Below, piece after piece: positions 24,001 to 30,000 of a DNA stretch of 64,000 bases (within the stretch, counting starts at the first letter, position 1; the number at the start of each line of letters is the position of its first letter). Source of the DNA: Escherichia coli. GTDB taxonomy: Bacteria > Pseudomonadota > Gammaproteobacteria > Enterobacterales > Enterobacteriaceae. The position numbers were made by a program. The stretch lies in the NCBI RefSeq assembly GCF_048403405.1, contig NZ_CP183129.1. One strand, 5' to 3'.

Positions 24001-27000
24001 ACTGGCATATAGCTGTCTTCCAGCATCAGCGGTTTCCCTTCCACAAAACGAACGCGACGGGAGAAGTAGATCTGCTCGTTGATTTGAATCCGTAGCTGGC
24101 TGGCAATGGCCGGAGGCGCAGGCATGATTTCAAAAATCAGCACCTGGCTGGTGACCGTTTTTCCCTGGTGTTTTAACACCTCCACCAGCCCGGTCAGGCT
24201 GGCGGTTTGATGCAATACATCTTTACGCACCAGGTAAGTACCGCTGCCGTGGCGGCGGACCACCAGCCCCCACGCTACCAGCAGATCAATGGCTTTACGG
24301 ATGGTCATCCGCGATACCGCAAACTCTTCCGCCAGCTTTTTTTCACCGGGAAGAAGGCTGTTTAGCGTGAAATCCGCGGAGTTAAGTCGAATTCTTAACC
24401 GCTCCGCAATGCTTTTGTAGATCATCTCTAGATCTCTTTTTTGCCTGCAAGCCCGGGTAACGCGCCCACAAGTTCTGCTTAATCGATTGAAAAAACATCT
24501 TTTTTTTAAAGATGTGTTCGATGCTGTGTACCAGTGCTCACAGATGTCTACTTTTTTGCGAAAACGTAGATCTCTACCGCCCAACGAAAAGCATGAAAGC
24601 GATCACGAATCCCACTGGGTCGTCATGTTCTGCCGATCGCATCTTCCTATCCTCGCTCCAGGCCTGCCGCATAACCAATCAGGCTTCCTACTTACAGAAT
24701 TGAGAAAAGAGGATGTGGAAATGCTCAGTCAAATTCAACGCTTTGGCGGCGCGATGTTCACGCCAGTGCTGCTGTTTCCCTTCGCCGGGATTGTGGTGGG
24801 TCTTGCCATCTTGCTGCAAAACCCGATGTTTGTCGGGGAATCACTGACCGATCCGAACAGTTTATTCGCGCAAATCGTACACATTATTGAAGAGGGCGGT
24901 TGGACGGTATTCCGTAATATGCCGCTGATTTTTGCTGTCGGTTTACCCATTGGCCTTGCTAAGCAAGCGCAGGGGCGAGCTTGTCTGGCGGTGATGGTGA
25001 GTTTCCTGACCTGGAACTATTTCATCAACGCGATGGGAATGACCTGGGGAAGCTACTTCGGCGTCGATTTCACTCAGGACGCGGTGGCAGGTAGCGGTCT
25101 GACAATGATGGCCGGGATTAAAACCCTCGATACCAGCATTATCGGCGCAATTATCATTTCCGGCATTGTGACGGCGCTGCATAACCGTCTGTTCGATAAA
25201 AAACTGCCGGTTTTTCTCGGCATTTTCCAGGGGACGTCTTATGTGGTGATTATCGCCTTCCTGGTGATGATCCCCTGTGCCTGGCTGACATTGCTCGGCT
25301 GGCCAAAAGTACAAATGGGGATTGAATCTCTGCAAGCGTTCCTGCGTTCGGCGGGTGCGCTTGGGGTCTGGGTTTACACCTTCCTCGAACGTATTCTGAT
25401 CCCAACCGGTTTACACCACTTCATCTACGGACCGTTTATCTTTGGTCCGGCAGCTGTTGAAGGCGGCATTCAGATGTACTGGGCGCAGCATCTGCAAGAG
25501 TTCAGTCTGAGCGCCGAGCCGCTGAAATCGTTGTTCCCGGAAGGCGGTTTTGCCCTGCACGGTAACTCAAAAATCTTTGGTGCCGTGGGCATTTCTTTAG
25601 CGATGTACTTCACTGCCGCACCGGAAAATCGGGTAAAAGTGGCGGGCTTGCTGATTCCCGCAACCTTAACCGCCATGCTGGTGGGAATTACCGAACCGCT
25701 GGAATTTACCTTCCTGTTCATTTCACCGTTGCTGTTTGCGGTACACGCCGTGCTGGCGGCCTCAATGTCGACCGTGATGTATCTCTTTGGTGTGGTGGGC
25801 AACATGGGCGGAGGTCTGATTGACCAGGTTTTACCGCAAAACTGGATCCCGATGTTCAGCAACCACGCGGATATGATGCTGACCCAAATCGCCATTGGGT
25901 TGTGCTTTACCCTGCTGTACTTCGTGGTTTTCCGCACCCTGATTCTGCAATTCAACATGTGCACGCCGGGACGTGAAGATGCGGAAGTGAAACTCTACTC
26001 AAAAGCCGAATACAAAGCCTCGCGAGGCCAAACCACCGCGGCAGAGCCAAAAAAAGAGCTGGATCAGGCTGCCGGTATCCTGCAAGCCCTGGGCGGGGTC
26101 GGCAATATCTCCAGCATTAACAATTGCGCGACGCGTCTACGTATTGCACTGCATGACATGTCACAAACGCTGGATGACGAAGTCTTTAAAAAGCTGGGAG
26201 CGCACGGCGTCTTCCGTAGTGGCGATGCCATTCAGGTGATCATTGGTCTGCATGTATCCCAGCTGCGTGAACAGCTCGATAGCTTAATTAATTCTCATCA
26301 ATCAGCAGAAAATGTTGCCATTACGGAGGCAGTATAATGACCAAATTCTCAGTGGTTGTCGCAGGCGGTGGAAGCACCTTTACGCCAGGCATCGTGTTGA
26401 TGCTCCTGGCGAATCAGGACCGTTTCCCGCTTCGTGCACTGAAATTTTATGATAACGATGGTGCGCGGCAGGAAGTGATTGCCGAAGCCTGTAAAGTCAT
26501 CCTTAAAGAAAAAGCGCCGGATATTGCGTTTAGTTACACCACCGATCCTGAAGTGGCATTCAGCGACGTTGATTTTGTCATGGCGCACATCCGCGTCGGC
26601 AAATACCCGATGCGCGAACTGGATGAAAAAATCCCGCTGCGCCACGGCGTTGTTGGTCAGGAAACTTGCGGACCCGGCGGAATAGCGTACGGCATGCGTT
26701 CCATTGGCGGCGTCCTGGAACTGGTGGATTATATGGAAAAATATTCACCAAATGCCTGGATGCTCAACTACTCCAACCCGGCAGCCATTGTCGCAGAAGC
26801 CACGCGTCGTCTGCGCCCGAATGCGAAAATCCTCAACATCTGTGACATGCCAATCGGTATTGAAAGCCGGATGGCGCAAATTGTTGGGCTGCAAGATCGC
26901 AAACAGATGCGCGTGCGCTACTACGGCCTGAACCACTTTGGCTGGTGGACATCAATTGAAGATTTGCAGGGCAACGACCTGATGCCCCAGCTGCGGCAAT

Positions 27001-30000
27001 ATGTCTCTAAGCACGGTTATGTTCCACCGCAGCAAGATACACATACTGAAGCGAGCTGGAACGACACCTATGCAAAAGCGCGGGATGTCCAGGCACTGGA
27101 CCCGGATACATTACCAAACACCTATCTGAAATATTATCTCTTCCCGGATTATGTCGTTCAGCATTCCAACCCTGAACATACCCGCGCGAATGAGGTGATG
27201 GAACATCGCGAGAAACAGGTTTTCGATGCTTGCCGCGCCATTACGGCGGCAGAAAATTCAGCGGCGGGCAAGCTGGAAATTGACGAACATGCGTCATATA
27301 TCGTCGATCTGGCGGCGGCAATTGCCTTCAACACTCAGGAGCGGATGTTGCTGATTGTGCCTAACAACGGGGCAATTCATAACTTTGATGATGAAGCGAT
27401 GGTCGAGATCCCGTGTCTGGTCGGGCACAACGGACCAGAACCACTGGTGGTCGGCGATATCCCGCAGTTTCAGAAAGGGTTAATGAGTCAGCAAGTGGCG
27501 GTGGAAAAACTGGTCGTGGACGCCTGGGAGCAGCGTTCATATCAGCACCTGTGGCAGGCGATTACGTTGTCGAAAACGGTACCGAGCGCCGCGGTCGCCA
27601 AAGCTATTCTGGATGAGTTGCTGGAGGCCAATAAAGCGTACTGGCCAGAGTTACGTTAATTGTGTGGACTGGCATCCGTTGGGTGCTGGTCCGTATTCTT
27701 CAGCACAGCTGACGGCGCATAACCAAATTTATGTTTAAAGGCTTTGCTGAAATGAAAGGAGTCGAAGAAGTTGAGCGTATCAGCGACTTCGCCAACCGAG
27801 TTCCCTTGTTGCTTTAATAGCGATAGCGCCAGATCCAGACGTGCATTGAGGTAATATTCTTTCGGCGTCTTGCCGGTATAGCGTAAAAACAGACGACGCA
27901 ACCAGGCTTCGCTACAGGGGATCGTGGCAGCCATATCAGCTACGCTCCAGCGTTGTTGCAGATTGGCATGTAAAGTGGCAATTAGTTTTTCAATTTGCCG
28001 CCGTTGTGGATCTTTTTTACCGTCTGCGTACATAAGACAAATCCACTGATAAATAATTTTCGTCAGAAAAGCGACTGCCAGATTATTTTTTATTGCTTCT
28101 GGTGAAGTTATTAACTCAGCAACTTCGGTGAGTTCCTGATTATAAATTTCGCCATTATAAATAACGCTTTGCTGACCAACGGGAATATCCATCATACTGG
28201 TGGGGGTAAATTCCATCCAGTACTGTTCCCAGACTAAACCTTCACAGTGATAAGAGTGAATATCCATTGGCTTTAAAAATATAATACAGTTGCCATGCAG
28301 AGTTATTTGTTCACCATTCTTTAAAATAATTTTCCCACATCCTTGTACGGTATACACCGCAACCCATGAGTTGGCGATAAGCGGTTTCTTCTTGTCCCGC
28401 GGCCAGATCACCCGGTAATGCTCGTCGGCGTAGGTATGCCAGAGCGAGATCAGAGAAATTCCGCTGGAGATCACATTTTCGTTAATCAATAAGGGAATAT
28501 TGTACGGAGTTTCGTTTTTTACATCTGAACTTTGCAATTTTCCATTCATTTTAATATCCCTCCGGCGAATTATGCTCACAACCTGAACTTAACAGAAAAC
28601 AATCCGTTCAGGGATACGACGTTTGTATTTTAAGAATCTGACTGCCTGACCCGACGCATTTTACCTCTCCCTATATTTATGCGTCCGGGACATAAACATA
28701 AATAAGGGCTATGAGATGAATTCGTTACAAATCTTGAGTTTTGTCGGTTTTACGCTGCTGGTGGCGGTCATCACCTGGTGGAAGGTCCGCAAAACAGATA
28801 CCGGATCGCAACAAGGCTATTTTCTTGCCGGACGTTCACTAAAAGCGCCGGTTATTGCCGCTTCGTTAATGTTAACCAACCTTTCCACGGAACAACTGGT
28901 TGGACTTTCCGGGCAGGCCTACAAAAGCGGCATGTCGGTGATGGGCTGGGAAGTCACTTCTGCGGTGACGCTGATCTTCCTCGCGCTAATCTTTTTACCG
29001 CGCTATCTGAAGCGTGGCATTGCCACCATCCCCGATTTCCTGGAGGAACGTTATGATAAAACGACGCGTATTATCATCGACTTCTGCTTCCTCATTGCCA
29101 CCGGTGTCTGCTTTCTGCCGATTGTTCTCTACTCCGGCGCGTTGGCGCTCAACAGCCTGTTTCACGTCGGGGAATCGTTACAAATTTCCCACGGCGCAGC
29201 GATCTGGCTACTGGTTATTTTGCTTGGTCTGGCGGGAATTTTGTATGCGGTAATCGGCGGACTGCGCGCAATGGCAGTGGCGGACTCCATCAACGGTATT
29301 GGGCTGGTTATTGGCGGGTTGATGGTGCCGGTATTTGGCCTGATCGCGATGGGCAAGGGCAGCTTTATGCAGGGCATTGAGCAACTCACCACCGTTCACG
29401 CCGAGAAATTAAACTCAGTCGGTGGCCCGACCGATCCCTTGCCGATTGGCGCGGCATTTACCGGTTTGATTCTGGTGAACACCTTTTACTGGTGTACAAA
29501 TCAGGGCATCGTGCAACGCACGCTGGCGTCAAAAAGCCTGGCGGAAGGGCAAAAGGGGGCGCTGTTAACGGCGGTGCTGAAAATGCTCGACCCGCTGGTA
29601 CTGGTGCTGCCAGGGTTGATTGCGTTTCATCTGTATCAGGATTTACCGAAAGCCGATATGGCTTACCCGACGCTGGTCAATAACGTTCTGCCAGTGCCAC
29701 TGGTGGGCTTCTTCGGCGCGGTGTTATTTGGTGCGGTGATCAGTACCTTCAACGGCTTTCTGAATAGCGCCAGTACGTTATTCAGTATGGGTATTTACCG
29801 GCGCATCATTAACCAGAATGCCGAGCCGCAACAGCTGGTCACCGTCGGGCGCAAATTTGGTTTCTTTATCGCCATCGTTTCGGTGATGGTCGCGCCGTGG
29901 ATTGCCAACGCGCCGCAGGGGTTGTATAGCTGGATGAAACAGCTCAACGGTATTTACAACGTGCCGCTGGTTACCATCATCATTATGGGCTTTTTCTTCC

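Follow-up and report, generated by a model that had tools for sequence, protein, structure and literature searches.

A predicted alpha-glucoside phosphotransferase operon, glvCB-glvG, undamaged in an Escherichia coli genome and decayed in K-12

Within a 64,000-nucleotide stretch of Escherichia coli contig NZ_CP183129.1 (assembly GCF_048403405.1; hereafter the window), positions 24721-27659 hold two adjoining open genes, a transporter gene (glvCB) and a glucosidase gene (glvG). With a probability of roughly 0.8, we read this pair as the undamaged ancestral alpha-glucoside operon of the Enterobacteriaceae phosphotransferase system (PTS), orthologous to aglA-aglB of Klebsiella pneumoniae and corresponding to the decayed glvC-glvB-glvG in K-12. 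The finding is correct but ordinary. It amounts to a strain polymorphism that is already known, in a system that is well characterised, since the glucosidase is already correctly named in RefSeq, the K-12 pseudogene stands in the reference annotation, and the loss of the locus from phylogroup B2 has been published. The two genes are as follows.

24721..26337, plus strand: glvCB, encoding a 538-aa glucose-family PTS enzyme IICB (EIICB) of the alpha-glucoside-specific subfamily, AglA orthologue
26337..27659, plus strand: glvG, encoding a 440-aa predicted 6-phospho-alpha-glucosidase of the NAD+/Mn2+-type glycoside hydrolase family 4 (GH4), AglB/GlvA orthologue

Two open genes and their predicted products

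The original prediction had described a single 538-codon EIICB open reading frame (ORF) with a CATRLR motif, followed by a full 440-codon GH4 ORF, the pair lying within 24721-27659, and the ORF list of the window, Pfam and the RefSeq calls concur on both. In the ORF list, the plus-strand frame is open from 24487 to 26337, and the ATG at 24721, preceded by GAGGA, gives 538 codons. The second ORF spans 26337-27659 (440 codons), and its ATG shares base 26337 with the glvCB stop (TAATG), an overlap that would be typical of translational coupling. Strain TUM14771 is 100% identical to the window over 24400-27800, and RefSeq calls the same two coding sequences there, with the proteins WP_000952127.1 (transporter) and WP_000160106.1 ('6-phospho-alpha-glucosidase'). 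Together, the RefSeq calls and the Pfam domains indicate that glvCB and glvG are real genes and not chance ORFs.

GlvCB has the expected domain order, with PTS_EIIC (PF02378, residues 10-346, E 4e-71) at the N-terminus and PTS_EIIB (PF00367, residues 453-482) at the C-terminus, and no Pfam match to an EIIA domain was obtained in the protein. Its subfamily can be assigned using curated models. The model TIGR02005, 'alpha-glucoside-specific PTS transporter subunit IIBC', matched residues 2-523 over model positions 1-524 with 959.2 bits against a cutoff of 607.3, whereas the sibling models for PtsG, NagE and MalX all remained below their own cutoffs (for example, 316 bits against 592 for PtsG and 277 against 632 for MalX). 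The GLHH motif at residue 230, GITEP at 322 and CATRLR at 469-474, which contains Cys469 within NNCATRLR, align to their PtsG equivalents. RefSeq gives the whole 538-aa EIICB the product name 'PTS sugar transporter subunit IIB'. The NCBIfam equivalog NF007255 (161 positions) covers GlvCB residues 378-538, which correspond to the K-12 GlvB fragment, and a pseudogene fragment of K-12 thus appears to drive the product name of the intact protein.

In GlvG, Glyco_hydro_4 (PF02056) was found at residues 6-184 (E 2e-67 to 1.6e-66) and Glyco_hydro_4C (PF11975) at residues 195-415 (E 2.6e-56). There is no NCBIfam model for the phospho-alpha-glucosidase subfamily, and GlvG matches other GH4 models weakly, below cutoff. 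The protein aligns at 912 bits to the 6-phospho-alpha-glucosidase structure 6DUX, without gaps over residues 1-439 and with a posterior confidence of 1.00, and at 752 bits to the Bacillus subtilis GlvA structure 1U8X over the same residues. The glycine-rich dinucleotide-binding motif GGGS (residues 10-13) is identical in 6DUX and 1U8X, and CDMP (169-172) and NH (199-200, with His200) are likewise the aligned residues in both structures. From the GlvA structure papers we take CDMP to hold the metal-ligand Cys and the catalytic Asp, and His200 to be a metal ligand.

These scores also bear on the specificity suggested by the older annotation of K-12 glvC, which would make the substrate a beta-glucoside such as arbutin. 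The label 'Arbutin specific PTS permease' survives in Table 5 of Touchon et al. 2009 (PMC2617782), and B. subtilis GlvA/GlvC in E. coli unexpectedly gave growth on gentiobiose (PMC5309279). However, the beta-glucoside IIABC models match the EIIB tail only, with about 40-45 bits where their cutoffs exceed 600, compared with 959 for the alpha-glucoside model. Phospho-beta-glucosidase structures score 149-212 bits with GlvG, against the 912 and 752 of the phospho-alpha-glucosidases, AglA-type alpha-glucosidases score at most 55, and CDMP is present. A beta-glucoside specificity is extremely unlikely in our view.

It could also be supposed that a hidden missense change has left this copy as dead as that of K-12 although its ORFs are open. 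The GlvG protein of the window is indeed unique among the seven full-length genomes compared. Nevertheless, every checked motif is present, the GlvG alignment to 6DUX is free of gaps as described above, and the GlvCB protein is identical to those of O157:H7 strain 4276, STEFF_1 and E2865. The ratio of nonsynonymous to synonymous diversity (piN/piS) among full-length haplotypes is low for both genes, at 0.036 for glvCB and 0.077 for glvG. A concealed inactivation is therefore considered very unlikely.

Lesions in K-12 and the state of the locus across E. coli

The statement in the original prediction that K-12 has a split transporter and a glvG pseudogene was right. In NC_000913, glvC (b3683) is annotated with 1107 nt, glvB (b3682) with 486 nt and glvG (b4556) as an 815-bp pseudogene, and the annotation of another MG1655 assembly by PGAP (Prokaryotic Genome Annotation Pipeline) carries the flags 'internal stop' and 'frameshifted'. 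The proposed alignment to K-12 was carried out base by base and found 23 substitutions in the approximately 2.9 kb shared (99.2% identity) and one 508-bp gap, so that K-12 does not have the same intact ORFs. The positions concerned are listed below.

25825..25827, plus strand: codon 369 of glvCB, CAG (Gln) in the window and TAG (amber) in K-12
26930..27437, plus strand: 508-bp stretch deleted out of frame in K-12 glvG, with a placement ambiguous by 8 bp
26930..26937, plus strand: first of the two direct GAACCACT repeats that bound the deletion (sequence context)
27438..27445, plus strand: second of the two direct GAACCACT repeats that bound the deletion (sequence context)

The CAG-to-TAG change at 25825 (Gln369) leaves K-12 with a 368-aa GlvC, and the 161-aa GlvB restarts at Met378. 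At the deletion junction one copy of GAACCACT is retained, and the GlvG frame is lost just past His200, with a stop about 12 codons on. The other missense differences are P238Q in the transporter and A419S in glvG; the latter lies downstream of the frameshift and is thus never translated in K-12. The window has neither lesion, reading CAG at 25825-25827 and retaining 26930-27437. K-12 has lost the system by two events, a widespread repeat-bounded 508-bp deletion in glvG and an amber mutation of the K-12 lineage in glvCB. Amber suppressors that insert Gln (supE44/glnV44), which are common in cloning strains, would restore exactly the wild-type transporter, but not the deleted glucosidase.

Using diagnostic probes, the state of the locus was counted in 5,426 complete E. 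coli genomes, a database rich in clinical and laboratory strains that does not represent natural populations. The 3.4-kb region 24400-27800 was covered to at least 80% in 4,267 genomes and had some match in 5,418; in the rows sampled from the remaining 1,150 or so, the match was limited to the last 112 query bases, which lie inside yidL. The locus is thus absent in about 21% of the genomes. Table 5 of Touchon et al. 2009 (PMC2617782) places glvC among the functions specifically absent from phylogroup B2. No plasmid copy was found among the matches, all of which are chromosomal.

A 486-bp probe that lies within the K-12 deletion detected full-length glvG in 1,652 genomes (30%), including O157:H7, O145:H28, BL21(DE3), HS and SMS-3-5. 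The intact state is therefore not special to the source strain. A 58-mer across the K-12 deletion junction was matched at 99% identity or more in 2,643 genomes, close to the 2,615 (about 48%) obtained by subtracting 1,652 from 4,267. In contrast to this deletion, the amber is narrowly distributed: its 55-mer (TAG) occurs in 348 genomes, and 30 that were sampled were overwhelmingly laboratory derivatives of K-12 (for example, MG1655, DH10B, C600, MC4100, BW2952 and EPI300), while the 55-mer of the CAG allele occurs in 3,925.

When individual genomes were sampled, both genes were open in all six with full-length glvG, and five of six non-K-12 genomes with the deletion had an open 538-aa transporter. 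The baboon isolate PapM-36-2 carries, in addition to the glvG deletion, its own stop at glvCB codon 40, which differs from the K-12 amber. In seven sampled genomes with the glvG deletion, piN/piS of the transporter was 0.067, and some of them (among L091-L096) encode the same transporter protein as intact haplotypes. One could speculate that the three-state polymorphism marks a niche trait, in which the roughly 30% of strains with the pair exploit alpha-glucosides of the diet, such as isomaltulose, isomaltose and maltitol, that are out of reach of K-12 and B2 strains, and the roughly 40% with an open, constrained EIICB and no hydrolase keep it for a second role, such as sensing or the uptake of a substrate cleaved by another enzyme; we regard this proposal as rather doubtful.

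Single-nucleotide polymorphism (SNP) patterns are mosaic across 15 haplotypes, and the same deletion junction is found on mosaic backgrounds, which fits a deletion disseminated by recombination as well as one that arose repeatedly at the 8-bp repeat.

Ancestry of the locus and its regulators

The description of the intact state as ancestral is well supported by the outgroups, since the same gene order is found at the same site in many genera of Enterobacteriaceae, and by the remnant left in genomes without the locus. In a scan of one genome per species, relatives of the glucosidase were found in at least 79 loci, among the matches listed. More than 20 species of Enterobacteriaceae have the order ibpB-yidE-yidP(minus)-EIICB-GH4 at this chromosomal position, including members of Klebsiella, Raoultella, Kluyvera, Enterobacter, Kosakonia, Phytobacter, Lelliottia, Cedecea and Buttiauxella as well as Citrobacter braakii, and the order runs on into yidL-yidK-yidJ in four species (C. 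braakii, a Kluyvera, a Pseudocitrobacter and an Enterobacter). Among 48 outgroup loci (L006-L053), the glucosidase is a single ORF of 440-446 aa in all, and the transporter a single ORF of 520-552 aa in 46. The two exceptions are a Vibrio locus (L053) without the N-terminal transporter motif searched for, and C. braakii ATCC 51113, in which the EIICB frame (about 5382-6998 of the locus) is interrupted and the longest stop-to-stop stretch is 352 aa. The latter is the most completely syntenic outgroup locus, and its glucosidase is intact beside the broken EIICB; the transporter has decayed independently there, in another genus.

Genomes without the locus retain a trace of it. For example, AR_0081 aligns through 23508-23812, about 100 bp beyond the end of yidE and into the 3' end of yidP, and homology resumes at 27689, past the last 33 nt or so of yidL, which is kept with its 3' end clipped. 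The yidP remnant argues for a deletion of about 3.9 kb and not for an empty ancestral site. As far as can be judged from these alignments, the intact state is the ancestral one.

An opposite history would be re-acquisition, in which the intact copy came from another species through horizontal transfer or recombination and took the place of a locus that was decayed or missing. The mosaic haplotypes show that recombination moves alleles within E. coli, and no other Escherichia species appeared among the best 80 matches of the outgroup scan. On the other hand, the 23 substitutions from K-12 in 2.9 kb amount to within-species divergence, and the GC content of the locus (0.50-0.54) is similar to that of its flanks, both of which argue against a foreign origin. 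The nearest foreign proteins, among the matches listed, are merely 91-92% (glucosidase) and 80-81% (transporter) identical, and all matches are chromosomal. Re-acquisition is accordingly held to be highly improbable.

The operon is flanked by two regulatory genes and preceded by a control region with the following features.

23709..24425, minus strand: yidP, GntR/HutC-family regulator divergent from glvCB, with a GntR winged helix-turn-helix and a UTRA domain
24426..24720, no strand assigned: yidP-glvCB intergenic control region, 295 bp
24544..24577, no strand assigned: candidate YidP operator, inverted repeat ATGTCTAC ... GTAGA(T/C), with GTCTA/TAGAC half-sites conserved across genera
24592..24607, no strand assigned: tentative CRP-like site CATGAAAGCGATCACG, with 7/10 matches to TGTGA-N6-TCACA
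27656..28549, minus strand: yidL, AraC-family regulator with HTH_AraC and AraC_binding domains (Pfam), convergent with glvG and divergent from yidK-yidJ

YidP (GntR) and YidL (AraC) lie where the original prediction had put them, but only YidP accompanies the pair across genera. Its domains were identified by Pfam as GntR (PF00392, residues 4-65) and UTRA (PF07702, residues 87-225). Of the 48 outgroup loci, 47, reaching as far as Proteus, Aeromonas and Vibrio, have a divergent YidP homologue upstream of the glvCB-glvG pair; in the other (L021), the upstream DNA is too short for a decision. In the locus-less haplotype, yidP has been deleted together with glv. From this linkage, YidP is likely to be the cognate glv regulator and is probably a repressor. 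In BL21(DE3) (NC_012971.2, 3746574-3753459), yidP (positions 49-686 of that locus) is annotated as frameshifted beside intact glvCB-glvG, and if YidP is a repressor, BL21 may express the operon constitutively. In the outgroups, yidL was seen only beside yidK, and it survives the yidP-glv deletion, so that YidL probably serves yidKJ and not glv. The convergent 3' ends of glvG and yidL overlap by 4 nt (27656-27659), which leaves no room for an intergenic terminator, and transcription of each gene must enter the other.

When the intergenic region was aligned across 16 species, including Aeromonas and Proteus, conserved blocks stood out within otherwise divergent sequence: the inverted repeat, the CRP-like site and the ribosome-binding site. 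The repeat comprises ATGTCTAC at 24544-24551 and GTAGA at 24566-24570, the latter within a wider E. coli block, GTAGATCTCTAC, at 24566-24577. Half-sites of the form GTCTA/TAGAC resemble operators of the HutC/GntR type. In the CRP-like site, the GATCAC core is invariant in all 16 aligned sequences. Two other candidates were rejected. The inverted repeat AAAACATCTTT/AAAGATGTGTT (24492-24518) was discarded as an operator because it is absent or unalignable in other genera, and the best E. coli match to the CRP consensus (24527, 8/10) because it is not conserved across genera. No intrinsic terminator was found in a scan of 24380-24760.

Two further observations concern neighbouring genes. The sulfatase-like gene yidJ (30428-31920, plus strand) is broken by two changes 85 bp apart, CGA to TGA at codon 320 (31385) and the loss of one G from a run of five (about 31466-31470). 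These are the sole differences from MS 69-1 and TUM14771 across 20000-44000 of the window, and both alleles are absent from all 5,426 complete genomes; they could reflect a very recent pseudogenisation or a local error of sequencing or assembly. In strain HS (NC_009800.1, 3884870-3891755; positions 3917-5698 of that locus), an IS200/IS605 tnpA remnant and a TnpB/InsQ gene replace yidL-yidK-yidJ, and these insertion-sequence genes directly adjoin an intact glvG.

Proposed function and comparison with known systems

The operon can be fitted into the following scheme. GlvCB would take up alpha-glucosides such as isomaltulose (palatinose), isomaltose, maltitol, turanose and related sucrose isomers, with phosphorylation of the glucosyl C6 via Cys469, as suggested by its subfamily membership and its 81% identity to AglA. 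The phosphoryl groups would be supplied by enzyme I, HPr and EIIA-Glc (Crr), encoded elsewhere, as suggested by the lack of an EIIA domain in GlvCB and by what has been published for AglA and for GlvC of B. subtilis. GlvG, translationally coupled to the transporter, would then cleave the 6-phospho-alpha-glucoside to glucose-6-phosphate and the aglycone by the NAD+/Mn2+-dependent redox-elimination of GH4; 89% identity to the AglB locus of K. pneumoniae, the structure matches and the presence of all checked motifs point to this step. YidP would control the operon, probably as a repressor at the GTCTA/TAGAC repeat and possibly with CRP input, as its co-occurrence with the pair and the conserved non-coding blocks suggest. 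Because the catalytic motifs are present and piN/piS is low, which indicates purifying selection in nature, GlvCB-GlvG are likely to function in E. coli.

Several points weigh against this scheme. First, every function assigned to the E. coli system is derived from orthology, and the YidP operator and the CRP site are candidates recognised at the level of sequence pattern. Second, no report was found in the literature of alpha-glucoside use by E. coli with an intact operon. For the type strain DSM 30083T, the one strain for which a phenotype was found, negative results are published for palatinose, maltitol, turanose and alpha-methyl-glucoside, and we take this strain to belong to phylogroup B2, the group without the locus. 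E. coli is classically scored negative for fermentation of alpha-methyl-glucoside, a trait that would be unexpected with an active system expressed in 30% of strains. Third, a simple consensus scan of 24380-24760 detected no sigma-70 consensus promoter, a result that would fit an activator-dependent promoter and equally a silent one. Finally, the locus has decayed repeatedly, through the 508-bp deletion, the K-12 amber, the PapM-36-2 stop, the deletion of the whole locus and the interrupted transporter of C. braakii ATCC 51113, which suggests that selection for it is conditional.

One rival deserves serious attention, namely an intact but cryptic operon, ordinarily silent like bgl, asc and chb of E. 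coli, with a phenotype only after an activating mutation such as the loss of YidP. This is compatible with the biochemical assignment. The negative promoter scan, the repeated and independent decay in E. coli and C. braakii and the missing phenotype report all speak for it, as does the frameshifted yidP of BL21(DE3), which is the kind of change that activates cryptic operons. However, piN/piS values of 0.04-0.08 indicate proteins under selection, and the conservation of CRP-like and operator-like blocks across genera suggests an ordinary inducible mode of control, like that in Klebsiella, whose orthologues are expressed. Silence of the operon is a possibility to be taken seriously, although we do not favour it over an operon that functions under ordinary control.

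There is nothing conceptually new in the finding of an intact operon, and its practical value is modest: K-12 is a poor reference for the glv locus, and its annotation of glvC, glvB and glvG describes a wreck. If the operon is expressed, it would provide a strain-specific use of sweeteners of the alpha-glucoside type and of sugars derived from starch (isomaltulose, isomaltose and maltitol) by about one third of E. coli, including O157:H7 and BL21(DE3), with consequences for models of the gut niche, for strain-specific metabolic reconstructions and for the use of industrial feedstocks. Klebsiella or Bacillus genes have been engineered into K-12 to gain alpha-glucoside use (PMC5309279).

Compared with known systems, the pair is closest to aglA-aglB of K. 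pneumoniae, a system that likewise has a divergent regulator of the GntR type and with which it shares gene order, domain architecture and motifs, in the same neighbourhood as in the Klebsiella and Raoultella loci. The locus of K. pneumoniae ATCC 13883 encodes proteins with 81% (transporter) and 89% (glucosidase) identity to those of the window. As summarised in PMC5309279 from Pikis 2006 and Thompson 2001, K-12 equipped with AglA/AglB is able to use alpha-methyl-glucoside, isomaltose, maltitol and sucrose isomers, with AglA requiring EIIA-Glc; according to PMC9104693, AglAB underlies palatinose use in Klebsiella. The two systems differ in distribution, in that PMC9104693 reports aglAB as core in the K. 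pneumoniae species complex, whereas the E. coli locus is polymorphic (intact, glvG-deleted or absent), and in that the K. pneumoniae system, which includes a solved 6-phospho-alpha-glucosidase (PDB 6DUX/6DVV), has been characterised by experiment, whereas the functions of that of E. coli are predicted. The glvC-glvB-glvG of K-12 is the same locus with the same flanks, and of the two only K-12 has the amber, P238Q and the 508-bp deletion.

The glvA-glvR-glvC operon of B. subtilis (malA-glvR-malP; GlvA structure 1U8X) likewise combines an EIICB with a GH4 phospho-alpha-glucosidase and uses an EIIA in trans, and Bacillus loci show 74% (glucosidase) and 61% (transporter) identity to the window proteins. 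Its order is reversed, however, with the hydrolase first, a regulator gene between and the transporter about 900 bp downstream. The Bacillus regulator GlvR is an RpiR-type activator and not a GntR/UTRA protein. When placed in E. coli, GlvA and GlvC of B. subtilis are functional and require crr (PMC5309279). Within E. coli itself, PtsG and MalX belong to the same fold family as GlvCB and have the same domain order; residues 3-530 of GlvCB align to the PtsG structures 8QSR and 9HNP, with shared GITEPxEF and CxTRLR motifs. GlvCB, however, has a phospho-glucosidase as its partner, an enzyme for which PtsG has no need.

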